Below are positions 5,501 through 24,754 of a stretch of DNA of 64,000 bases, in pieces; position 1 is the first letter of the stretch, and each line of letters starts with the position of its first letter. The DNA is taken from assembly GCA_965205025.1 (NCBI GenBank), contig CBDBFU010000032.1, forward strand, positions 128,001-192,000. The letters are read 5' to 3'. Under the pieces are notes generated by a model. That model made no database searches, had not been told where the DNA came from, and worked only from the letters and a program-made list of their open reading frames with translations. Position numbers and translations under genes: made by a program. The DNA comes from Candidatus Poribacteria bacterium (GTDB lineage Bacteria > Poribacteria > WGA-4E > WGA-3G).

Positions 5501-8500
5501 TCTCCGGAGTAGAACTCTTTAGGGGCTCCAGTCTTATCTACACCGACTGATTGTTGTCCTGGGAAGACAACTTTGACAGTCAATTCTCCATTAAAGTTTG
5601 TATTTCGCGTGAATTTCTTCTGTTTTACAATAGGATCATAGCTTGCAGTCTGTATATATCCGTGTTCGATTTTTACAGTATCCCCAACTTTAACCGTCTT
5701 TGTCTGAATTGCGGGTAAGATTTCATAATCCGCCATAGCAATGTGCATAGCAGGATCACCGAATAGTGTATATTCCAGCATAATATCAAGTTGTCCAGTG
5801 CCTTGGGTTAGCAGATATTCAAGTTTGGAGTCAAAGCTTAGGGGTCCCAGTTGTCTAATATTACGTTTGAATAGCATATCAAATATGATCTGGTTTAGAT
5901 CTTCATTTCCACTGCCGTAAGTTAATCGAGTAGCACTGAGCATCCCTATGATTCCGCCTCTTTCTTTCCTTAGGAGTTTTTCAGCCAAACTCGGTTCACC
6001 CGGTTCATCAAAATATCCGTTATAACAACTCAAGACCAACATAAACGGCAGATGGTCTGTTTCTTTAACGTCATCAACATAAGCATTTCCGAAGATGGCT
6101 TCGTGTGCCCAGACAATATTTCCACCGTGTCCGGCGTATTGTGCGATAGCTGCTCCTTCCCCCAAAGCCTTAATAATCCTATCTCTTGCGACATGTCGAG
6201 GTAGAGTACTGGGAAATTGTTCAGGATTCGCCTCAACTTCATCTATTACATCTTCAAGATAAATCTCAATTGTTTCATATCCGAGGCGAGTATGGTTTTT
6301 TGCAATTTCGTTTAGACTCTTTTTAAAGATGTGATCACCGGGGTTATTCACCTCATCATCGGCAACAGATATAATGCGTCTTCTCCATGTACCATTTGGT
6401 CGTTTCGATTCGTAATTAATGATTTTATCAACAACAGCATCAGCTTCAGTCTGAGTTTCAACGGCGAGTCTCCCGATATATAAATCGACAAACTCATCAT
6501 GTCCTGAGACTGTAGCATACCAATGGTCAGTTGAAGTTCTACCATACGAATCTGTAGTGATGTAATGTGTAGGTATATATCCTGTGAGTTCAGGTGGTTC
6601 TGAATATATATCTTTATCTATACCTCGGAAATCGAAAGTGCCATCTCCTAAGATAACCATATATAAGAGTGCTGGAGGAGTCCAATTATGATAGGCATAG
6701 GTAAGGAAATTCTTTATCCAGATAGGATGGACTTTCCCGTCTCCAAATGTATTGTAAACATCGTTTATATCAACAACTTTTGTTCTATGTCCGCCTCCTC
6801 GTTGTGTGGATCGCCAGTTTGCTAACCTATCTGCTTGTTCTCGATATGTTGCATGGGTCAAGATAAGGTAGTCGACACTGTTCAGAGTGTTTCGTAGGTC
6901 GTTGGGTTGTATTGTTTCAATTTTAGCAGGTTTCCGAAGGGCTGAATTTGAAACAGCGATAAACTCAGTTGTTCTTGTATCTGGTATCTGAAAAATTGCG
7001 GAATATGTACTATTGGGAACACTTCTGAGATCTCCAGAATTTAATGCCCTTAGACGATCCTGCATTTCATGATTGACATTCTGCTGTAATATATTTACGC
7101 CTTGCAGCTTTGCAGTAAGAGTATTTCCGTCAGTTTCAAAAACATTAATTTTCGGATCAAGAAATGCATCAATCCGAAATTGGTGTATTCTCCCTTTCTT
7201 TTCTTCCTCACCCACTGTTTTAATGGGAGTACCAAATCGGAGTTCATCATTAACGGCTAAGAATAGTCGTGTATAATCCACCCAAAAGCGATTTAAGTAT
7301 ATATGATATGGATATCTCTTTGTGTCTTCTTCAAAAGTGCTATCGACTCGTGTTAGAGAAAGGATATTATTTTCGCCTTGCGAGGTATCTTTAAGGTTAT
7401 TCCAAACGCGAAGATTTTTTGAGAGAGTTACTTGCGATTGCAAATCCCATTTTGCGAGATCAATTTTAACACCGTTTACAGAAGCCAATATTTCATGGAA
7501 TACAGGTGTTCCTCCTTGTAATACGACGTGTATTTGTGGAGCATCGAAGCTTTTTGCTATATCGTGGAGTTGGAATTCATGTCTGAGTTCTCCTATATCA
7601 CTTGCATTTTTGATACCGTCCCAATACCAAAAGTCTAATGCGTCAAACCATTTATGTTTATCCCCATCTGAAACGACATCTGGATCAACGAATTCAAGGT
7701 TATTTGTGAGGTGATCCTCCTCAAAAATGACTCTTGACCGAAAAGTTGGGACTTGAACGGCGGTTGCATCGCTTGGACTTGCTTCAATTTGTGGCACACG
7801 TGATGGTAGTTGTCTATCGGATGATATCGTTAGCCAGTATACATTCCACAATGTATATGCATTTTTGGGATAGGGATTATCGGGATCTGTTGTGCCATGG
7901 GCGAGGAAGAAAATAGCATCGTTTGCATCAAAACTTCGATCTCCCGCGCCGCTAATATAGATAGGTATTTCTTGATCTGCATGTGAAAGTTGTATTTTCT
8001 GTGGATCAATACCGATGAGATTAATATCCCAATCGGTATGGAGTGATGCTGCTGAGACACTGTATATACCGGTCCTATCAATATACAATTTATAGCGTGT
8101 TTGATTTGATTTGTCATTTAATCCTGGTGCAGCGGGAGCAGATGGTACGTTTCCATTCTGAATATATGAAGGACGTTTTGTCTGAAAACCTGTGTTAAAG
8201 ATCTTTTTATAGTCTGAATAGTTGTGGATATGATGTGTTAGTGAATGCTTGTTGGAATTTAGACGTTCCTGTGAATTTGATAAAATAGAATTTAGTCTTG
8301 CTTCATTTCCAAGTTTAGATAGTTGTGATTGAAAAGGAATAGAGACTGTGAGACTGGTGTAAGACTGAAGTATACGTGTTTGTATATTGTATTGTACTGG
8401 ATGTAGTGCTAATGTAATGACGCGTTGAGAACGTATGTATCCATCCATTTCTATACGTGCCAAGACTGAAGGATAGAGATGAGAATGAGTAGATACATTT

Positions 8501-8961
8501 TCTTTATCAACTGGGAGTTTCACACCGTTGCGAGTTTGCAGAAAACCTGCATGAACTGATATGTCAGTATTGTTTAGTTTTACATCGGGAGGTATTGCTA
8601 AAAGCAGCCGTGTTGCAGGTAATTTTGGATAACCTGGATCTTGTATCCAATCACAATCTGAATAATGAACTGTATCATATACGATGTTTTCTTGCGGATT
8701 ACCATTGTTTACATCATGGGAAACTCTACTGACATGGAGTTGGGGTAATTTAAAAGTTACTGTTATACCGTCTTGGGTTGTGACATGGGAGACATCCGCA
8801 TATATGTCAGTATTAAAGGTGAATAAAACTCCCGCGAATGTGAGAAAATACAATAAAATTGCCCAGATGTGGGTTTTGGAGGTAATTACATTTTTAAAGG
8901 AAAATGATTTGATTTTTTTGTGATATATGAAAATATGATTTTGATGATTAATCTTGAGCAT
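2536..8961 (-). CDS. Large C25 (gingipain/PorU-like) cysteine peptidase with propeptide and C-terminal FlgD-Ig/T9SS-type domain
   Basis: DYLILTH, ILGDG, TDHWY, IGRL, catalytic YAGHG and SCYNGYF, LFGDP; the C-terminus has NYPNPFN...IYTLTGRLIR...WDGKDDDG..VANGVY. Confidence 0.85.
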   Translation of the reverse strand: MLKINHQNHIFIYHKKIKSFSFKNVITSKTHIWAILLYFLTFAGVLFTFNTDIYADVSHVTTQDGITVTFKLPQLHVSRVSHDVNNGNPQENIVYDTVHYSDCDWIQDPGYPKLPATRLLLAIPPDVKLNNTDISVHAGFLQTRNGVKLPVDKENVSTHSHLYPSVLARIEMDGYIRSQRVITLALHPVQYNIQTRILQSYTSLTVSIPFQSQLSKLGNEARLNSILSNSQERLNSNKHSLTHHIHNYSDYKKIFNTGFQTKRPSYIQNGNVPSAPAAPGLNDKSNQTRYKLYIDRTGIYSVSAASLHTDWDINLIGIDPQKIQLSHADQEIPIYISGAGDRSFDANDAIFFLAHGTTDPDNPYPKNAYTLWNVYWLTISSDRQLPSRVPQIEASPSDATAVQVPTFRSRVIFEEDHLTNNLEFVDPDVVSDGDKHKWFDALDFWYWDGIKNASDIGELRHEFQLHDIAKSFDAPQIHVVLQGGTPVFHEILASVNGVKIDLAKWDLQSQVTLSKNLRVWNNLKDTSQGENNILSLTRVDSTFEEDTKRYPYHIYLNRFWVDYTRLFLAVNDELRFGTPIKTVGEEEKKGRIHQFRIDAFLDPKINVFETDGNTLTAKLQGVNILQQNVNHEMQDRLRALNSGDLRSVPNSTYSAIFQIPDTRTTEFIAVSNSALRKPAKIETIQPNDLRNTLNSVDYLILTHATYREQADRLANWRSTQRGGGHRTKVVDINDVYNTFGDGKVHPIWIKNFLTYAYHNWTPPALLYMVILGDGTFDFRGIDKDIYSEPPELTGYIPTHYITTDSYGRTSTDHWYATVSGHDEFVDLYIGRLAVETQTEADAVVDKIINYESKRPNGTWRRRIISVADDEVNNPGDHIFKKSLNEIAKNHTRLGYETIEIYLEDVIDEVEANPEQFPSTLPRHVARDRIIKALGEGAAIAQYAGHGGNIVWAHEAIFGNAYVDDVKETDHLPFMLVLSCYNGYFDEPGEPSLAEKLLRKERGGIIGMLSATRLTYGSGNEDLNQIIFDMLFKRNIRQLGPLSFDSKLEYLLTQGTGQLDIMLEYTLFGDPAMHIAMADYEILPAIQTKTVKVGDTVKIEHGYIQTASYDPIVKQKKFTRNTNFNGELTVKVVFPGQQSVGVDKTGAPKEFYSGDVIKTKTISVKNGSYPAVEIDVPNNIAAGDAHVEYYAENNTEIAVGGDGFTVKIPKILDIKPILTTKTSGEDVIDLFVRVSDDEKAVDSVKLEWRNPNTANWEIISLIPTQSGPETNEPNIATARWWKIPQALPVPTDGSALRYDIQVTDTDGQSIRSEILRFYPYTFPNLSVAASREENITQINYEVGNPEDGEQEYVLSADIELVGTANSSDKIDSENDLLSVLGLSDVDIEVVFFSGNPDIDNNGIVDEDAHILGKTQITPKNWVVRNPLNNRSNAYIPNPLNINPIATVIIPISLRTGTHDVFVYVDPVFNEADENGKVKENNENDNIGYRQLAVSSNIIGGGPARVASIDGGLRINLPAGVIQNKTTVLNISSIIPDTTFSDEDYAIGGTGNAREIARKSEPVFSSVSNKEKSHLQAGTLIPVTFPNEPSMLGYTLQIKNSEFKETRNTFKLQTPVSIELDFDFTALQHEIIRELFGSDVDVTHEMSDIEETINTAIQARTQTLGAYLWLDEIANWTRLESKVKKHTNGSIYTAIRATGIRAKNNTDAALNDVIIPSDGVDTGTWILLFDSTHTCRVLFLTDQTSNENLVGKPQLKEIARGIPITSFTSVFGVTIEDIPNFLLEIQEGEIPFQFGDMMRFRIAKLEAPGEEVSQLFASSFTSRNAGNGTIQYLDLSTNTKIPQDSWLILFVTENQYQIEGKNTGILQNNGVPVYGTVGKPYEYKDYGMNLLITHGTTPFTPGDRFLFNTSPVGTIQSTTSYLGTITCLQSEDTVPPNIQLTVGNQGHFVSGDPVDASPLVQATLTDPRGIDYITRPIQLELGKLGEFQPIPETEYKLTQHPGSSQLILTYNSPELEPREYQLRLIASDLDGNTGESEIAFQVHGKLQLVEPLNYPNPFNSDTTVTCELTRPAESLIVKIYTLTGRLIRELQSEASAGFIQLKWDGKDDDGNEVANGVYYGKMIVKSLDDEDDQTHILKMMKLK

Positions 8962-9162
8962 TATCTTGCCTTAATTAGTTGTTAGTTGTTAGTTGATAAT
9001 TGTTTCCGTTTAACAGTGGCATTTTCAGAGTAAAGGTTTTTGGCACTCAACTTCATCCTGCAATTGTATCTGGATACCAATATTTTTCCCAAGTATTGTT
9101 CATTTGTATACATCTCAACTCCATTATTGCATTGTGACCTTCATCTGTCAATCTCATAATTA

Positions 9163-9270
9163 TATTAGATGTATGGCTATTGTGAATGGAAAAAGTGTTA
9201 ATTTTTGTCGTATTGAAATGGTTGCCCTTTCACGGAAACCTTCACGGAGCAATTTTACGAGCCCTTATTC
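9163..9270. repeat. ~108-bp dispersed intergenic repeat (second copy 16830-16936)
   Basis: tattagatgtatgg...ttcacggaaac(c/t)ttcacggagcaattttacga(g/a)cccttattc aligns between the two loci. Confidence 0.85.
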
Positions 9271-9421
9271 TATAAGGGTTTAAATTTTAATTAGACCGAT
9301 TTTCCGTGAATCACATTCGTTAATTTAATTATAACTTAAGTACTTATATGTTTTTCATACGAAATGTATTGGGACATAGCACTCCGCTGGAGTGCCAGAT
9401 TGTTCCGATATTGTTTTCTAT

Positions 9422-9573
9422 AACGTGAGTTTGATAAATCATATTTTTAAATTCGAATCAACGGTATGAATGCTATTTAGCATTCCCCGTGGTTAGGAAA
9501 CCGCACCTACCGGGCGTATAGGAGTAATATTTTAGGAAAATGAAACTTATTTGCCTATTATCAAACTCACGTT
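9422..9573. mobile_element. MITE-like element E with a 6-bp target duplication, carrying module D and a REP remnant
   Basis: 16-bp TIRs aacgtgagtttgataa / ttatcaaactcacgtt; ttctat is duplicated at 9416-9421 and 9574-9579. Confidence 0.8.
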
Positions 9574-14988: not shown

Positions 14989-16443
14989 TATAGGCGTCAA
15001 TTTTAGAAAAAGGATGTCTGATTTTTCAATAATAATTATTGTTAAGTGAAAACACCTCCTATATAATGTATAAAAATATTACCTTTTACTTTATACAAGA
15101 GGTGTTTCCAATGAATACATTATCACAGGTTCCTGAAAAAATGCAACAGATTCTAACAACCATTGCTGATGAAGCAGCCCTTGAAACAGGATTTTGCAAA
15201 AGAAATCGAAAACTTGCGGGGAGTCATTTTGCTCAGACACTTATTTATAGTTGGTTAGAAAATCCTGATGCCACCTATACTCAACTTACACATACTGCTG
15301 CTTCTCTCGGTACTCCAATCTCACGACAAGCGATTGAACAACGATTTACTGCTGAAGCTGCACAAACCCTCAAAGCAATCCTTGACGCGGCTGCGTCCGA
15401 AGTGATTTCTGCGGATCCACAAGTTCTCCCACTCCTTGAACAGTTCAACGGTATCTATATACAAGATAGTTCTTGGATAACACTCCCTGATACGCTTCAC
15501 GATATTTGGGAAGGTGCCAGTAAAAAGGATTATCCGAACAAATCCGAACTGAAACTCCATCTACGCTTCGATGTTGCTACAGGGACATTCGAACACTTTC
15601 AACTCACCAACGGCATCACCGCTGATAGCACTGTAGAAAAACAGATTGACCGGCTCCCCCAAGGGAGTTTACGCCTTGCGGATCTCGGTTATTTTTCGCT
15701 ACAAACCCTTCAAGAACTTACGGACGAAGGGGTCTTTTGGATTTCACGGTATAAAGTTAGGTGTTCGGTTTTTGACAATACAGGAAAGCCTCTTTGTTTA
15801 CATAAATGGCTCAAGTTTCAGACCGAAAACATTATCGAAACAGATATTTTCATAGGTTCAAAAAAGCGGATGAAAGTAAGATTAGTAGCTCAGAGACTCT
15901 CCGAAGAAGAAACCGAAAAACGACGACGAGATATCAACTATCGTGCTAAACGAAAGCATACACAAGCATCACAGGCACGACTCCAACTCGCAGGTTGGAA
16001 TATCTACATTACAAATATTGGAACGGATCAACTCACCGCTGAACAGATATGTGTCATTGCGCGGATTCGATGGCAGATCGAGTTGATATTTAAGTGCTTT
16101 AAAAGCCTTGGAAAAGTAGACACATCACGAAGTAAAAAACCGTATCGTATTCTATGTGAAATATATGCTAAACTGATCGCTGCAATCATTCGGCATTGGG
16201 TGATGTTGGTCATAGGATGGCGATGTTTACGGCATAGTTTATCGAAAACAGTAGAGCTTATTACGTCCTACACACGCACAATCACAATAAGCTTTCGCAA
16301 GTCAAAGAGACATCTTAGAGAGACATTTGATGAGATAAAACAAGTATTCGAAAACGGGTGCTACATTGAAAGAAGAGCTAATAGAAAAACAACATTGGAA
16401 TATCTTGAAAATGCTACAAAAAACCGCTAAATTGACGCCTATG
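14989..16443 (+). mobile_element. Complete IS4-family (IS231-like) insertion sequence, 1455 bp
   Basis: TIRs tataggcgtcaattt / aaattgacgcctatg; flanked by identical 20-mers gtgcggttaggaaaccgcac at 14969-14988 and 16444-16463. Confidence 0.93.
15111..16430 (+). CDS. IS4-family DDE transposase (439 aa)
   Basis: RBS gaggtg before ATG 15111; IQDSS, LRLADLGYF and RWQIELIFK motifs. Confidence 0.93.
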   Translation: MNTLSQVPEKMQQILTTIADEAALETGFCKRNRKLAGSHFAQTLIYSWLENPDATYTQLTHTAASLGTPISRQAIEQRFTAEAAQTLKAILDAAASEVISADPQVLPLLEQFNGIYIQDSSWITLPDTLHDIWEGASKKDYPNKSELKLHLRFDVATGTFEHFQLTNGITADSTVEKQIDRLPQGSLRLADLGYFSLQTLQELTDEGVFWISRYKVRCSVFDNTGKPLCLHKWLKFQTENIIETDIFIGSKKRMKVRLVAQRLSEEETEKRRRDINYRAKRKHTQASQARLQLAGWNIYITNIGTDQLTAEQICVIARIRWQIELIFKCFKSLGKVDTSRSKKPYRILCEIYAKLIAAIIRHWVMLVIGWRCLRHSLSKTVELITSYTRTITISFRKSKRHLRETFDEIKQVFENGCYIERRANRKTTLEYLENATKNR

Positions 16444-17099: not shown

Positions 17100-17253
17100 G
17101 TGACAAATGATTTATGCACCCTTTGTATAACTATAGAATTCAATAAGAAAAATGCGTACAACAAATTCTTGCATCCCATTAATGTATAGAATATAATGTC
17201 TATCAATATTCTGATGACCAAACTTAATTGTAATATCAATATACTGGGAATAT

Positions 17254-18084
17254 ATGAAACTTAGTTGCCTTCCCGTATCCCTATACGATGACATTTTCTC
17301 AGGAAAAAGTACGGTTGCAGATTGGATTCATCTTGCATCTCAATTAGGTTTGGATGGTGTTGATTTTAGTATCAAATTCTTTCCAGATCGTAGTGAAAAA
17401 ACAATTAATAGAGTAAGGACTATACTCACAGAAAGAAAAATAGATGCCTGTATGATAGCATGCTATTCTGACTTTACAGATCCTGATAAAACAATGCGAA
17501 AACAGGAATTACTGGATATAAAAACAGATATTAGATTAGCAAAAGATTTAGGGGCTAAATTTGTAAGAGTGACTGCAGGGCAAAAACATCCCGGGATTAA
17601 ACGTGAGGATGGAATTCGTTGGGTAACGGAGGGTTTTCGACATGCTCTTGATGAAGCAGAAAAACATGGGATCACACTCGCTTATGAGAATCACACCAAG
17701 GGGGCACCATGGGAGTATTGGGATTTCTCACAACCGTCAGAAATTTTCATAGAAATCCTAAACGAACTATCGGATACACACCTTGGTGTCTGTTTTGATA
17801 CCGCTAACCCTCTTGTCCTTAACGAAGATGTTCTTGACCTTTTTGAGAAGGTATTAGATAGAATAGTAGTACTTCATATATTTGACATGAAGGAAATAGG
17901 TACATTTGAACCGGTTAGGGTTGGGACAGGTGCATCCCCAATTCAACAAATCCTCTCACGGTTACGACAAACTAATTATGATGGTTGGCTCAGTATTGAG
18001 GAAGCCAGTCGTCAAGGACGAAAAGGGTTTGAAGAGTCAGTTAATTATGTTCGTAAAGCGTGGAATGATGCATCATCCACGTGA
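17254..18084 (+). CDS. Sugar phosphate isomerase/epimerase (xylose isomerase-like TIM barrel)
   Basis: LAYENH, CFDTAN, HIFD, G.G and YDGWLSIE metal-binding pattern. Confidence 0.88.
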   Translation: MKLSCLPVSLYDDIFSGKSTVADWIHLASQLGLDGVDFSIKFFPDRSEKTINRVRTILTERKIDACMIACYSDFTDPDKTMRKQELLDIKTDIRLAKDLGAKFVRVTAGQKHPGIKREDGIRWVTEGFRHALDEAEKHGITLAYENHTKGAPWEYWDFSQPSEIFIEILNELSDTHLGVCFDTANPLVLNEDVLDLFEKVLDRIVVLHIFDMKEIGTFEPVRVGTGASPIQQILSRLRQTNYDGWLSIEEASRQGRKGFEESVNYVRKAWNDASST

Positions 18085-18924
18085 GGGTTCACTCATACTT
18101 TCTCGTGCTTGTTGTGAAAGTGCTGCAAGATGACCATCGTTTGCTCTAACCTGTTCCAGATGTATTTCCCGTTCTGGTGTTGCCGTATTTACCATTATTT
18201 CACTATATTTACGATCTATCCAGAAACGTGCTGAGCCTGCTATATAGGCTTGTAATGCTTCCAATTTTTCCTCTGGATACCTTTGGCAAAGATTCATAGT
18301 AAACATACGTCTTCGTTTGCCACCACCGAATGCTGCGTGTTTTGTATTGTGGTTAAACAGCACGAGATCTCCTGGTGTGGTTTCAAACACTACGGCAGGT
18401 ACATCTTTTCCGTGTATTTCCCACATTTCCTGACTCTTCCCTACTTGTTGACTCAGACCATCGGCATAGTTATCACCGAATAGATGACTTCCAGGAATTA
18501 CACGTAATGCACCAGAATCACGGGTCAGAGGATCCAAATAGAATGCAATTTTTAAATGCATTGGATCTTCTAATTTATGTCCTCCATCAGAATGCCATCC
18601 GGTATCACCTACATAGAAATTACCATCACTTCCCATATAGTTAAAATCATCTCCGAGAAGTGTTTTGGCAATTGCCAGGATACGCGGATCATCAAGTAAA
18701 GAACACAACACAGCACTTTGATCTATAAAGGGAACAATACAGGACCGTGCTGTACCTTCGTGGGGTCTTCCGTTATGACCGCCACCACGTTCTTCCCAAA
18801 CCGTTTCAAACGCATCCTGAATTTCTTTGATTCTATCTACCATTAATTGTGGAAAACTGAGGTAACCGAATGTTTTAAAAAAGTTTATTTCCGATTCAGT
18901 GACTGTATAATCATGTTGATTCAT
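18073..18924 (-). CDS. Phytanoyl-CoA dioxygenase (PhyH) family Fe/2OG dioxygenase
   Basis: WHSD, GALRVIPGSH, PGDLVLF..H and RR motifs; RBS ggagg. Confidence 0.9.
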   Translation of the reverse strand: MNQHDYTVTESEINFFKTFGYLSFPQLMVDRIKEIQDAFETVWEERGGGHNGRPHEGTARSCIVPFIDQSAVLCSLLDDPRILAIAKTLLGDDFNYMGSDGNFYVGDTGWHSDGGHKLEDPMHLKIAFYLDPLTRDSGALRVIPGSHLFGDNYADGLSQQVGKSQEMWEIHGKDVPAVVFETTPGDLVLFNHNTKHAAFGGGKRRRMFTMNLCQRYPEEKLEALQAYIAGSARFWIDRKYSEIMVNTATPEREIHLEQVRANDGHLAALSQQARESMSEPSRG

Positions 18925-19019
18925 TTCTCAAATCCTCCAGATGTCTGAATGATGGTATCATACATAAGCGTAATGAATATAGCAATAGAGATGAATACCA
19001 TAACTTCAGATCATACGAA

Positions 19020-19144
19020 AACTCTGGATAAGAAACGGAATACAGATGCTCTACCACTGAGCTACAACAGGTTTTACATTACATTCCACCCGTTGGCAGG
19101 AGTCGAACCTGCGACCCGATAACGCATTCACACGACCCAGAGTT
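19020..19144 (-). ncRNA. yrlA: YrlA-type Y RNA (circularly permuted tRNA mimic)
   Basis: Minus-strand order: closing stem AACUCUGG/CCAGAGUU, GAAUGCG/UGUAUUC, T arm GCAGG-UUCGACU-CCUGC, 7-bp acceptor-like stem CAACGGG/CCUGUUG closed by a loop, UA, D arm GCUC-AGUGGUA-GAGC. Confidence 0.8.
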
Positions 19145-19216
19145 AGAATATAGATTTTATGTAGAATTGACCTGAAGAAGTATGTATCCAAGGGATTATC
19201 CATATTCAGTGTGGTA

Positions 19217-19246
19217 ATTATAATGGATATGCAATTATTTTGTCAA
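19217..19246 (-). promoter_or_regulatory. Consensus sigma70 promoter driving the Y RNA region
   Basis: TTGACA (19246-19241), 18-nt spacer, TATAAT (19222-19217). Confidence 0.8.
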
Positions 19247-19646
19247 ATATAGTATAGATTAACATCAGTTTGATAATCAAAAATGTCAGTTCGATAAACA
19301 AAATTTTGTCTTGAAGATAGTCTTTGTAGCACAAACTTTCCAGTTTGTGCATCCTGGTGTTAACTAAAAGTTCGGGTTACAATGTGTCTAATCAAACTCA
19401 CGTTAGATTAAGTATGTTATTGTAAATTGGAATCCTTTCCTTCCAAAGCTTACATACATGCACATGAATGTAAATTCTAATCCTTCCTTAGCAACTATTG
19501 TTAATGTCAATCTCCCGTTAAGTCTATTGAAATATGATAACCATAAGGGTATAATTCTATAGTGTGAAACTGTTAAATTTACATATTTTTTATCTCGAAT
19601 TTTAATCTTCAAATTAGTGTATTGCTATATTTCCGTATGATGGTAT

Positions 19647-20729
19647 TTGATGAAGAAGTTTATTCTCCTAATTCTTTCCATTCTCATATTAGGTATTATT
19701 TCCTACTTCTTTTATTCCCGTTTAGTATTTAATCCTACTCCCATTCTCGTTAATATACCACCCTCAATACCCCATGAGCATGTTACTCCAGAAGGGGAAT
19801 CCGTTAAACATATTCATACCTATGACCTATCTTTTGAACAGCCAAAATTATATAGGGAAATCCCTGCAACAGATATACTAAAGAAACACCCTATCCAGCT
19901 TGAATGGGAACGGATTGACCTTCAAATGATCCGTGAGAAGTATCAACCCTATACTGTATCAGAAATGAAGAATAAATGGTATCAAGTATATAGGAATGAA
20001 TTTGGATCAAATTATCCAACGAAATTAGACAAAGCATACCCTCAAGAAAAATGGCTTAAACAAAATTTGGAATTAGGACAACCATTAGCAGAATACATGG
20101 ATTATAGAGTAGTAATGCAACGGAGAATATATATGATAAATAGACGTGATTTATGGAGGGTTGTTAGTCCAGAGAAAAAGGAAGCTATGCGAAATAGTCT
20201 ACAATTACCACTATATATTGATACCTGGAGAGAGTACGAAGATGCCTATCTTAAGTTCTGGATTGTTGCTTCGTACGAATCCTTGGTATCAGACAAAATG
20301 GAAACTGTTTCTGCTTATGTAGTGAATAAGGAGTTTTTCTCAAAATTCACTGGTGGACGGCTTAGTCGGAAAGAGAAATATGACTTGATGGTGTATGGGG
20401 TGATTCCTGATGGGAAAAACATCGTATATTATAAATCAGATGGTGAGATTCTACCACCACGTGTAAAACCTCGTTATTACGAACGCTATATGGTAGAATT
20501 AAATCAAGCACAAAAAAACGTAGATAAGATGATTAGGGATCATCAAAGTTTTTTTCAATCCAGCAAAAAGGAAAGAAGAAAAACAAAACTTAAAAATCCA
20601 GTAGCCTTCTCATTGTTAAAGGAACTTCATTGGGGTGAATATCCAGATGATCTTCAGACTTTAGAGAAAGCGATTACTAAACTTGAAGAAATACGGACTG
20701 ATGGGGAAGCAAAGATACATAAAAGGTGA
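19647..20729 (+). CDS. Hypothetical protein with an N-terminal membrane anchor
   Basis: Long ORF beginning MKKFILLILSILILGIISYFFY; no recognisable domain. Confidence 0.65.
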   Translation: MMKKFILLILSILILGIISYFFYSRLVFNPTPILVNIPPSIPHEHVTPEGESVKHIHTYDLSFEQPKLYREIPATDILKKHPIQLEWERIDLQMIREKYQPYTVSEMKNKWYQVYRNEFGSNYPTKLDKAYPQEKWLKQNLELGQPLAEYMDYRVVMQRRIYMINRRDLWRVVSPEKKEAMRNSLQLPLYIDTWREYEDAYLKFWIVASYESLVSDKMETVSAYVVNKEFFSKFTGGRLSRKEKYDLMVYGVIPDGKNIVYYKSDGEILPPRVKPRYYERYMVELNQAQKNVDKMIRDHQSFFQSSKKERRKTKLKNPVAFSLLKELHWGEYPDDLQTLEKAITKLEEIRTDGEAKIHKR

Positions 20730-22837: not shown

Positions 22838-24754
22838 ATGATGAATCTTACACGAACTACAATCGCGTTATTAATGACTATTTATTTTATAACATATAAT
22901 GTTAATGCAGATGATTTCTCAACATGGGAACTCCCTGAAGGTGCGGTTATGCGTCTTGGTAAGAGTCGGATAAGTGGAAATTTTGCTTTCTCACCGGATA
23001 GCACACGACTTGCAGTAGCCAGTGAAATTGGGATCTGGATTTATGATGTCCGATTGGATAATAAACCGAAAGAACTTATGCTCCTCACGGGTCATCAAAA
23101 TGGTGTTAAGAGGGTTGTTTTCTCACCTGATGGGAAAACCATTGCAAGTGGGGGTTCGGATCATACTGTTCGTTTATGGAATGCTGGAAATGGAGAGCAG
23201 GGGTATAGAATGGAAGGACACCCGTGGATAATCTCAGCATTAGCGTTCTCTCCTGATGGAAAAACACTTGCTTCAGCAAACGAACATTATGAGGATGGTA
23301 CGAGAATAATTGAATCGGAGATTAGATTGTGGGATGTAGAAAATGGACAACATATCACGACACTGAAAGGACATACAGATACGATCACATCATTATCATT
23401 TTCAATGGATGGTAAGACATTGGGAAGTGGTGGGAATGATAATGCTGTCTTATTGTGGAATATTGAGACTGAACAAATGACACCCTTATATGCTGAACAT
23501 GATAATAGCGTAAATTTTGTTGGATATACATCAGATGGCAACTCATTAATTACGGGGAGTTCGGATAACACTGTTAAAGTATGGGATGCTAAACGTGGAT
23601 ATAACAAATTAACAATAAAACTGAATCCATTGTTTGATTTATCAATAGTTGCAGTATCTCCTGATACCAAGACTATCGCTACTGGTGATTATGAGGCAAT
23701 TAAATTATGGAATTCAGAAACAGGTGAATTCAAAACAACAATCAAATCAAATGATTATAATATCTATAACTTATCATTCTCTCCTGATGGTAAAATTCTG
23801 GCATCTAAGGGATTTGGTGAAAATGTGATGTTATGGGATTTAGAAAAACTTAATCATAAGTCAACAATTGAGGGACATGGTGGTTCAGTCCTTTCTATAG
23901 CATATTCACCTGTTGGAAATACGATTGCTTCTGTGGGTAAGGGTAGAGCAGGTCTTTTATGGGATACACAGACTGGACAAAACAAAGCTGCCCTTAAAGG
24001 GTACTTTGCCTCTGTACTTACGTCAGTAGCCTACTCACCAGATGGGAATACCATTGCTACTGGAGGTAAGATGAAAAGAGTATTATTCTGGGAAGGACGG
24101 AAACGGATTTTACAGACATATTCAAGAAAACCGAAATCAGAAAGAATTGAAACCAGAGAAAATATAAATTCTATAGCATATTCCCCTGATGGTGATACAC
24201 TTGCTATAGGACTTACAGACAACACGGTCCGGTTATGCAACGCAAAGTTAAAAAAGGAAAGAAGAAAATTGGCAGGACATACAGATAATGTTACATCAGT
24301 CGATTTCTCCCCTGATGGTAGTATCCTTGCAAGTGGGAGTCAAGATACCACAATTAGTTTGTGGAACCTACACACAAAAGAACATGTGGCTAGACTTGAT
24401 GGACATAAAGCACGAATCACATCAGTTGCTTTTTCTCCTGATGGTACCACACTCGCGAGTGCAAGTGCTGATAATCATGTTTTCCTATGGAATGTTGAAT
24501 CCGAAGATATAAAATTGAAAATTGGAGAAAATAATTGGCAATTTCTGAGTGTTTCATTCTCCCCAGATGGTTCAAAAATTGTTACAGGGGATCGAAGAGG
24601 TCTTGTTCAGTTGTGGGATACAACAACTGGTAATCTAATACACACTTACAAAGGACATTCACAGGATGCAAATACAGTGAAATTCTCTCCTGATGGAAAG
24701 ACAATTGCCAGTGGTGGTAATGAAGGGACAGTCCTTGTTTGGAATCTGCCATAA
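22838..24754 (+). CDS. Secreted WD40-repeat protein
   Basis: Signal peptide, WELPEGAVMRLGK and many GH...FSPDG.TLASG..D.TV.LW repeats. Confidence 0.93.
   Translation: MMNLTRTTIALLMTIYFITYNVNADDFSTWELPEGAVMRLGKSRISGNFAFSPDSTRLAVASEIGIWIYDVRLDNKPKELMLLTGHQNGVKRVVFSPDGKTIASGGSDHTVRLWNAGNGEQGYRMEGHPWIISALAFSPDGKTLASANEHYEDGTRIIESEIRLWDVENGQHITTLKGHTDTITSLSFSMDGKTLGSGGNDNAVLLWNIETEQMTPLYAEHDNSVNFVGYTSDGNSLITGSSDNTVKVWDAKRGYNKLTIKLNPLFDLSIVAVSPDTKTIATGDYEAIKLWNSETGEFKTTIKSNDYNIYNLSFSPDGKILASKGFGENVMLWDLEKLNHKSTIEGHGGSVLSIAYSPVGNTIASVGKGRAGLLWDTQTGQNKAALKGYFASVLTSVAYSPDGNTIATGGKMKRVLFWEGRKRILQTYSRKPKSERIETRENINSIAYSPDGDTLAIGLTDNTVRLCNAKLKKERRKLAGHTDNVTSVDFSPDGSILASGSQDTTISLWNLHTKEHVARLDGHKARITSVAFSPDGTTLASASADNHVFLWNVESEDIKLKIGENNWQFLSVSFSPDGSKIVTGDRRGLVQLWDTTTGNLIHTYKGHSQDANTVKFSPDGKTIASGGNEGTVLVWNLP

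Follow-up and report, generated by a model that had tools for sequence, protein, structure and literature searches.

The window analysed here, a stretch of 64,000 nucleotides forming part of contig C32 of a Candidatus Poribacteria genome (G000; 5.66 Mb, 33 contigs), carries a Y RNA gene of the YrlA type that has lost the Ro60 gene (rsr) beside which its relatives lie. It stands alone because about 1.9 kb holding rsr was lost between the RNA and the adjacent phyH gene, and its sequence has changed far less than its flanks since. The only rsr in the genome is on another contig, C2, where it has a Y RNA module of its own. We consider it fairly probable that the stranded RNA remains functional as a Y RNA and serves, in trans, the C2-encoded Rsr.

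Structure and classification of the RNA

The RNA gene, its parts and its neighbours are located as follows.

19020..19144, minus strand: YrlA-type Y RNA gene, the stranded copy, recognised by fold, Rfam YrlA core match and the genus model R1
19142 to 19022, minus strand: RNA body, from CUCUGG at 19142 to CCAGAG at 19022
19123..19142, minus strand: 5' strand of the terminal helix, CUCUGGGUCG UGUGAAUGCG, presumed Rsr-binding side
19096..19112, minus strand: T arm (helix 3), GCAGG-UUCGACU-CCUGC, 100% paired in 29 homologues
19065..19095, minus strand: acceptor-like stem of 7-8 bp, CAACGGG(U)/(A)CCUGUUG, with a 15-nt closing loop
19064..19063, minus strand: UA linker (tRNA positions 8 and 9)
19062..19048, minus strand: D arm (helix 6), GCUC-AGUGGUA-GAGC
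19022..19046, minus strand: 3' strand of the terminal helix, ending in GUAUUCCGUUUCUUAUCCAGAG, then UUUU
18985..19013: junction of the rsr deletion of about 1.9 kb relative to genome G018, with 27 nt in place of 1.9 kb
18073..18924, minus strand: PhyH-family gene (Pfam PF05721, E = 3.3e-13), 95 nt downstream of the RNA on the same strand
19217..19246, minus strand: promoter-like site TTGACA-18 nt-TATAAT
19647..20729, plus strand: P0003, a divergent gene for a 360-aa hypothetical protein, the conserved neighbour on the 5' side of the RNA

A preliminary description of this DNA, made from the sequence alone, had read the element as a circularly permuted tRNA mimic with a T arm, a closed acceptor-like stem, U-A and a D arm in that order, enclosed by a long terminal helix. 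All of these elements are present at the positions above. The terminal helix is reproduced by the minimum free energy fold and its ends pair in 29 homologues, and the YrlA-type architecture proposed at that time is confirmed by the Rfam YrlA core match together with the fold. Read 5' to 3' (19144 to 19020), the RNA begins with CUCUGGGUCGUGUGAAUGCG, the 5' strand of the helix, and continues through UUAUCGGGUC into the T arm; the outer helix is formed by CUCUGGGUCG from 19142 downward and by CUUAUCCAGAG with its end at 19022. The terminal pairing is made up of a 9-pair and a 7-pair helix, which are 98% paired in the 29 sequences and mostly invariant. The minimum free energy fold has the same layout at -40.3 kcal/mol (z = -3.0), with 1 of 200 shuffles as good. 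The V region starts with UUAU (RNA positions 23-26), which fits YUAY as defined in PMC4201824, and a Levitt pair between C32, before the T stem, and G15 in the D loop is predicted from the sequence.

An Rfam scan of the window at the default threshold gave no match. Infernal with the Rfam YrlA model (RF02553), a check proposed in the preliminary description, recovers the core at 19116..19048 (model positions 27-81 of 114, comprising the T, acceptor-like and D parts) with 32 bits (E = 4.6e-5 in a search of 601 bases, E = 1e-4 in the whole genome), short of the 69 bits set as gathering score, and leaves the outer helices unaligned. The T arm fits the model consensus with high posterior probability. 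The default scan missed the RNA because the outer helices of this lineage differ from those of the Rfam seed. The rsr-adjacent YrlA on C2 likewise falls below the gathering score at 33.7 bits, so RF02553 under-represents this lineage. There are three sub-threshold RF02553 matches in G000: the stranded copy, the C2 copy and one on contig C28 (29.8 bits), which was rejected as a Y RNA since it is a run of tRNA genes.

We aligned 29 copies over the whole RNA length and built from them a covariance model, R1, with which 40 genomes of the same genus were searched; the stranded copy scores 155 bits over all 133 positions. Under the consensus structure, standard pairs make up 98.3% of the pair cells in the 29 homologues. 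Two-sided changes occur at 10 of 34 pairs, compared with 3.6 +/- 1.0 in shuffles (0 of 500 reach 10) and with 1-4 pairs in a control with slid partners. The covariation is centred on the acceptor-like stem (6 of 7 pairs) and on a pair in its 15-nt loop that adjoins the conserved UGUAAUG and is G-C in 19 rows and A-U in 9. Of the alignment columns 52 are invariant, among them those of CUCUGG.UC and UUAUCCAG in the terminal helix, which are found in 29/29 copies and in all Rsr clades; the UA linker and the D-loop GG are conserved too. The 5' motif, a presumed Rsr contact with the family form GNCGAAN0-1G (PMC4201824), reads GUCGUGUG in the stranded copy and is followed by GAAUGCG, invariant or nearly so in the alignment. 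The C2 YrlA has the exact family motif (GUCGAAUG), and GUCGUGUG is the commonest form among rsr-linked copies of the genus, as read by eye from the alignment rows.

The T arm of one tRNA gene followed by the D arm of the next could give a similar picture, and debris of two tandem tRNA genes was named in the preliminary description as the explanation that would undo the assignment; PMC4201824 also warns of this artefact. The T arm, spacer and D arm of tandem tRNA genes do give the same YrlA-model core match, as at the C28 cluster with RF02553. R1 finds a match of about 33 bits in nearly every genome of the genus, which in G000 is the tRNA-Arg/tRNA-His junction on contig C20 (33.6 bits), with a T arm of the same sequence as that of the stranded RNA, and which was discarded. 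Tandem tRNA genes, however, are detected by ARAGORN (as elsewhere in G000), possess anticodon arms and have no conserved terminal helix, whereas ARAGORN found 0 tRNA genes in the window and no anticodon arm or tRNA variable region lies on either side of the stranded RNA. Moreover, the outer stems are invariant in 29/29 relatives, the T-D stem covaries and the RNA is tied to rsr across the genus. We therefore reject tRNA debris with near certainty; 19144..19020 is a bona fide YrlA-type Y RNA gene.

YrlA RNAs have been described from Salmonella Typhimurium, Mycobacterium smegmatis and more than 250 other bacteria and phages (PMC4201824; structure in 10.1101/312249). The stranded RNA resembles them in the order of its parts (5' helix strand, YUAY-type V region, here UUAU, T arm, acceptor-like stem, UA, D arm and 3' strand), in its nearly invariant D and T sequences, in a possible G15:C48 Levitt pair and in its family's location, with 49 of 51 copies upstream of rsr. 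It differs in its low RF02553 score with unaligned outer helices, in the 5' motif, in the 15-nt loop with conserved UGUAAUG on its acceptor-like stem, and in its distance from rsr. The 2014 survey, in what it reports of YrlA, took only copies within 4 kb of rsr, so that unlinked copies were invisible by design, and its supplementary tables may hold unlinked hits (PMC4201824). For the G018 orthologue and 49 of 51 genus copies, rsr is no more than about 4 kb away on the same strand; the stranded copy differs in this, which is a matter of location and not of the molecule.

Linkage to rsr and the deleted neighbour

A DNA search of 60 related genomes returned full-length homologues in 30 of 36 from the same genus and, outside the genus, only D-arm-sized fragments of at most 27 nt. 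With R1 there are 51 matches of at least 82 bits in 34 of the 40 genus genomes, and 49 of these share contig and strand with rsr and are no more than 2.6 kb from it. The two unlinked matches are G000:C32, the stranded copy, and G004:C57. One rsr locus each is present in 34 of the 40 genomes and the RNA is found in all 34, while the six genomes that lack rsr (G006, G012, G013, G014, G017 and G022) have only the match of about 33 bits and no copy of the RNA. Since the RNA is found in the genus only where rsr occurs, an orphan acting in trans is favoured among the readings first offered.

By tblastn on the fetched loci from other genomes, leaving out the G004 orphan, rsr flanks the RNA in 27 of 28 and is 2.5 kb away in the remaining one (G029). 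Many loci of the genus hold a second, longer YrlA-type RNA (82-91 bits), and a YrlB-like hairpin directly follows each YrlA in nearly all rsr loci, giving modules in which one rsr is accompanied by at most two RNAs of the YrlA type and two YrlB-like hairpins. A P0003 homologue flanks the rsr-linked RNA in L007, L009-L014, L021 and L034 and in 7 of 22 further loci.

In G000 Pfam TROVE has one match, on contig C2, an ORF of 548 aa with TROVE and vWA_Ro60 domains. The genome-wide search thus returned a single rsr, and with it a paralogous YrlA 170 nt upstream. This C2 YrlA is full length and 82% identical to the stranded RNA over the RNA body (127 aligned bases), the two being distinguished by 25 positions, with the CUCUGGGUCG...CUUAUCCAGAG helix identical in both. 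It is flanked by two hairpins of about 65 nt (z = -3.7 and -4.6), whose bulged helix has GCCGAAG, an exact form of the GNCGAAN0-1G motif, close to its 5' end and which look like YrlB-type Y RNAs. The C2 module, of about 1.95 kb, is thus ordered YrlB-like hairpin, YrlA, YrlB-like hairpin and rsr, with a DDE transposase gene upstream. G004 also has a module of the C2 type, 93.5% identical over 1984 nt, and one rsr.

In the window, tblastn detected no TROVE gene or rsr remnant (best E = 0.019). The preliminary description had listed a PhyH dioxygenase and a hypothetical gene as neighbours and neither TROVE nor RtcB in the 64 kb; this agrees with our results, the sole RtcB match of the genome being on contig C12 and P0003 having only a sub-threshold Pfam match to DUF5078. 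No YrlB-like hairpin was matched in the window at up to 3 substitutions. A candidate in the 95-nt spacer before phyH was rejected, its hairpin being no better than shuffles (z = -0.8); the 3' half of that hairpin is old phyH upstream sequence, present in G018 too.

The reason for the isolation of the RNA is seen by comparison with G018. In the 18 kb fetched around its copy, which differs from the stranded RNA at 6 of 123 aligned positions, the order is TIM barrel, phyH, rsr (545 aa), YrlA, P0003 and mutL. Window 17187-18985 aligns to 5629-7430 of this locus (L035) and window 19013-19151 to 9342-9480, and the rsr ORF lies between both blocks at 7575-9212. G004 aligns unbroken across the junction (88% identity over window 17122-19253), so the deletion is common to G004. 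These alignments show that about 1.9 kb with rsr was deleted in the common ancestor of G000 and G004. The gene order of G018 together with the deletion identifies phyH as a former neighbour of rsr and not as a new partner of the RNA. Conservation of phyH at the locus had been put forward as a point to examine: phyH does recur there, coming after rsr in G018 as well as in 6 of 22 further loci, and is thus the former neighbour on the downstream side of rsr. As a dedicated partner phyH was rejected, no functional link having been found; its place beside the RNA looks like inherited gene order.

An assembly or binning artefact, with C2 and the window contig derived from different strains or the deletion produced by a mis-join, would also separate the RNA from rsr. 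Both genomes with this arrangement are in many contigs (33 in G000, about 120 in G004), and G000 has an estimated contamination of 4.3%. Against this, the two genomes were assembled separately, are about 88% identical in DNA and share both the junction and the second locus, and there is exactly one rsr in each. A DNA contig from run X4 covers 18000-19123 across the junction with no differences, although X4 may be the source of the window itself and so perhaps not independent. We consider an artefact very improbable and, from the presence of both loci in both assemblies, take C2 and C32 to belong to one cell.

Two histories of the C2 rsr were weighed. We favour, from the sequence comparisons, a second module that would have arrived at C2, with the native rsr lost thereafter; the alternative is that the native gene was relocated to C2. 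G008, G036 and G002 resemble the C2 locus over the module of about 1.95 kb alone, and contig C50 of G018 has the C2 flanks with rsr absent. These findings, and the mere 82% identity of the C2 YrlA to the stranded one, speak against a transfer of the native gene by simple cut-and-paste. The 96.8% identity of the C2 YrlA between G000 and G004, set against its 82% identity to the stranded copy, shows that it is not a recent duplicate. Arrival of a second module is complicated by the Rsr phylogeny, where the companions of the G000 protein come from relatives that have rsr at the phyH site. In the maximum likelihood tree the Rsr proteins of G000 and G004 group with those of L042 and L041 (support 97/93), and this group is sister to a clade with RNAs 90-93% identical to the stranded copy (98/98). 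The G018 Rsr is a long, unplaced branch (0.68). Between G000 and G018 the proteins are 84% (TIM barrel), 94.7% (PhyH), 86% (P0003), 89% (MutL) and 73% (Rsr) identical.

Sequence constraint and transcription signals

The deletion could have left a functionless relic, a Y RNA pseudogene as yet undecayed, its cognate rsr being gone and the other YrlA beside the remaining rsr making it possibly redundant. The rate of change argues against this. Between G000 and G004 the RNA body differs at 2 of 125 bases (98.4% identical) and the pooled flanks at 232 of 1873 (12.4%), for which the binomial probability of two or fewer differences in the RNA is 1.2e-5. The TIM-barrel gene is 86.6% identical, phyH 90.0% with 24% of third codon positions different, the 5' leader (66 nt) 89% and the spacer before phyH 76%. 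Both changes in G004 keep pairing, A-U to G.U in the T stem at 19110 and G.U to A-U in the acceptor-like stem at 19091, a test of pair preservation that comprises two substitutions only. In the stranded copy 0 of 34 pairs are broken, and it deviates at none of the columns that at least 90% of the rows conserve; the rsr-linked C2 copy also keeps every pair but has 5 such deviations, so that the stranded copy is in this respect nearer the family consensus. With 9-17 differences, the distance of the stranded copy to six outgroup RNAs is no greater than that of the rsr-linked G018 copy (15-19). A recent recombination tract is unlikely as the cause of the RNA identity because the flanks right beside the RNA have diverged at the background level. 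With its promoter boxes intact as well, the RNA is improbable as a relic; the comparison indicates that the stranded copy is kept under purifying selection.

The G018 locus merits separate mention. Its RNA is conserved beside an Rsr that is only 73% identical to that of G000, and its YrlB-like hairpin is missing. The constraint on YrlA may come from more than Rsr, and near-invariance of the RNA beside a diverged Rsr fits a constraint not set by the cis-encoded protein.

The promoter-like site at 19217..19246 agrees with the sigma-70 consensus at 12 of 12 positions and is about 70 nt upstream of the RNA body; G004 and G018 carry these boxes in the corresponding position. The scan of 18850-19650 called no terminator-like site. 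From runs X1 and X2, whose RNA type is guessed, contigs of 169 and 211 nt match 19019-19157 with 4 differences and have unlike flanks. They are a relative's copy and mark the limits of the conserved element, not transcription here. Run X3, a metatranscriptome, matches only a dispersed repeat at 19322-19357.

This arrangement, in which promoter and RNA precede phyH by 95 nt on its own strand and no terminator-like site was called between 18850 and 19650, would suit a role free of Ro60, in which the RNA is a leader or processing signal of phyH or its tRNA-like domain has another partner (a tRNA-binding enzyme, PNPase alone or the ribosome). The G018 RNA, conserved despite a diverged Rsr and the loss of the hairpin, points the same way. 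A leader or promoter role alone, however, would not explain 125 bases at 98.4% identity next to a leader at 89% and a spacer at 76%. The RNA was also never found without rsr somewhere in the genome (40 genus genomes; 6 of 6 without rsr lack it), and its most invariant part is the terminal helix, the Ro-binding part in the Y RNAs characterised in PMC4201824. We regard a role independent of Ro60 as unlikely.

Proposed function and relation to known Y RNAs

Service to the C2-encoded Rsr in trans, the reading that we prefer, could work as follows. Through the deletion, promoter and RNA gene came to lie immediately before phyH. The stranded RNA would be made from its own sigma-70-type promoter and trimmed to a body of about 120 nt. 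Rsr from C2 would bind it in trans through the terminal helix, which varies little or not at all among the genus copies, that on C2 included, and would do so alongside the C2 YrlA and YrlB-like RNAs. The tRNA-like domain may then serve the Ro60 ring as a gate or as a tether, to PNPase for instance, as its counterparts do in Deinococcus and Salmonella. These steps draw on known systems, in which the two ends of a Y RNA pair into the helix that binds Ro60, the effector domain of YrlA closely mimics a tRNA but has no free CCA end, and the Y RNAs of Deinococcus and Salmonella tether Rsr to PNPase (PMC4201824; 10.1101/312249).

Among other Y RNAs, YrlB of Salmonella and M. smegmatis, which is short and without a tRNA-like domain, is resembled by the C2 hairpins of about 65 nt with GCCGAAG, whereas the stranded locus has no YrlB-like companion. 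Metazoan Y RNAs share the terminal helix with a conserved 5' strand bound by Ro60. They are transcribed by polymerase III, and their genes are, as far as is known, unlinked to the Ro60 gene, like the stranded copy. In contrast to the RNA described here they have no tRNA-like domain, according to PMC4201824. Yrn1 of Deinococcus radiodurans is also similar in having a T-arm-like module, in lying near rsr and in tethering Rsr to PNPase (PMC4201824; 10.1101/312249), and differs in the absence of a full D arm as described in PMC4201824, the stranded RNA having a complete one.

A literature search found no paper treating Y RNAs in Poribacteria; both words co-occur in one paper. The present data add a whole Poribacteria lineage of Y RNA modules below the Rfam YrlA threshold. 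What is new is an RNA gene kept intact after the loss of the neighbouring rsr; its other biology is as known for YrlA, so that the gain is incremental. A Y RNA could outlive its own Ro60 gene by serving the Rsr of another module or, which seems doubtful to us, through a tRNA-like role free of Ro60 and possibly tied to phyH. The locus is a natural experiment, in which a YrlA without a neighbouring rsr evolves at about one eighth of the rate of its flanks. This suggests that genes for Y RNAs can act in trans and be shared between Rsr variants and, if this is true, Y RNAs would be interchangeable parts across these variants.

Y RNA complement of the rsr modules

Many Poribacteria modules built around rsr, the bacterial Ro60 gene, contain a second, longer YrlA-type RNA of ~150 nt, scoring 82-91 bits. 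Whether it is found on the distal or the proximal side of the main copy varies between clades. Examples from three genomes are:

G008:C62:13221-13370
G036:C1:1698515-1698664
G019:C47:2423-2573

There are therefore up to four Y RNA genes per rsr. The modules also carry one or two hairpins of ~65-75 nt with the pattern GGGCCGAAGUAUU(A/G)CG ... ACACACCUUGCCC. Two of these are found on contig C2, which holds the only rsr of G000, the Poribacteria genome under study:

L002 1418-1490, minus strand, YrlB-like hairpin 1
L002 1652-1728, minus strand, YrlB-like hairpin 2

In the majority of rsr loci (L008-L034, L040-L060) such a hairpin also follows YrlA directly. Their loops vary, and the bulged helix carries an exact GNCGAAG motif, matching the published presumed Rsr-contact motif GNCGAAN0-1G; for the two C2 hairpins, fold z was -3.7 and -4.6. 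In appearance these hairpins resemble minimal Y RNAs of the YrlB type.

No YrlB-like hairpin was found within the window or at the rsr locus of the close relative G018 (L035 9213-9347). In the Rsr tree, the G018 protein (gene at L035 7575-9212) has a long branch (0.68); its identity to the Rsr encoded on C2 is only 73%, neighbouring proteins sharing 84-95%. Despite this divergence and the missing hairpin, the G018 YrlA differs from the stranded RNA, the YrlA of the rsr-less window locus, at only 6 of 123 positions. A further module, that of genome G025, may be broken or rearranged: its rsr match (G025:C70:14695-15966) is spread across two ORFs (299 aa and 316 aa), upstream of which the RNA seems to be present as two overlapping partial copies.

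Potentially mobile and repeated elements around the Y RNA loci

Several repeated or potentially mobile features lie close to the Y RNA genes:

window 15039-16430, DDE transposase gene, 2.6 kb from the stranded RNA
L002 1796-2896, DDE transposase gene, immediately upstream of the C2 rsr module
window 22838-24754, large WD40-repeat protein, near the stranded RNA
L001 2-577, large WD40-repeat protein, near a Y RNA locus
window 19260-19410, dispersed repeat of ~150 nt, adjoining the putative promoter of the stranded RNA on its upstream side

The DDE transposases present at both Y RNA loci may have mediated rearrangements. Large WD40-repeat protein genes are likewise close to both loci, and are multi-copy in these genomes, giving many partial matches in sequence comparison. 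The dispersed repeat is possibly MITE-like; it has 41 other matches in the genome at 87-95% identity, 40 of them spanning most of its length, shows very high DNA depth in sequencing run X4, and is missing from the corresponding site in the sister genome G004.

A tandem tRNA pair resembling YrlA

In nearly every genome of the genus, the YrlA covariance model built for that genus gives one tRNA tandem ~33 bits, because a YrlA-like T arm is followed by tRNA-His:

G000:C20:324419-324576 (L039 170-327), tRNA-Arg(TCT) then tRNA-His

The T arm sequence, GCAGGUUCGACUCCUGC, is identical in tRNA-Arg(TCT) and YrlA. This resemblance fits the published idea, as outlined in 10.1101/312249, that YrlA derived from a dimeric tRNA transcript.
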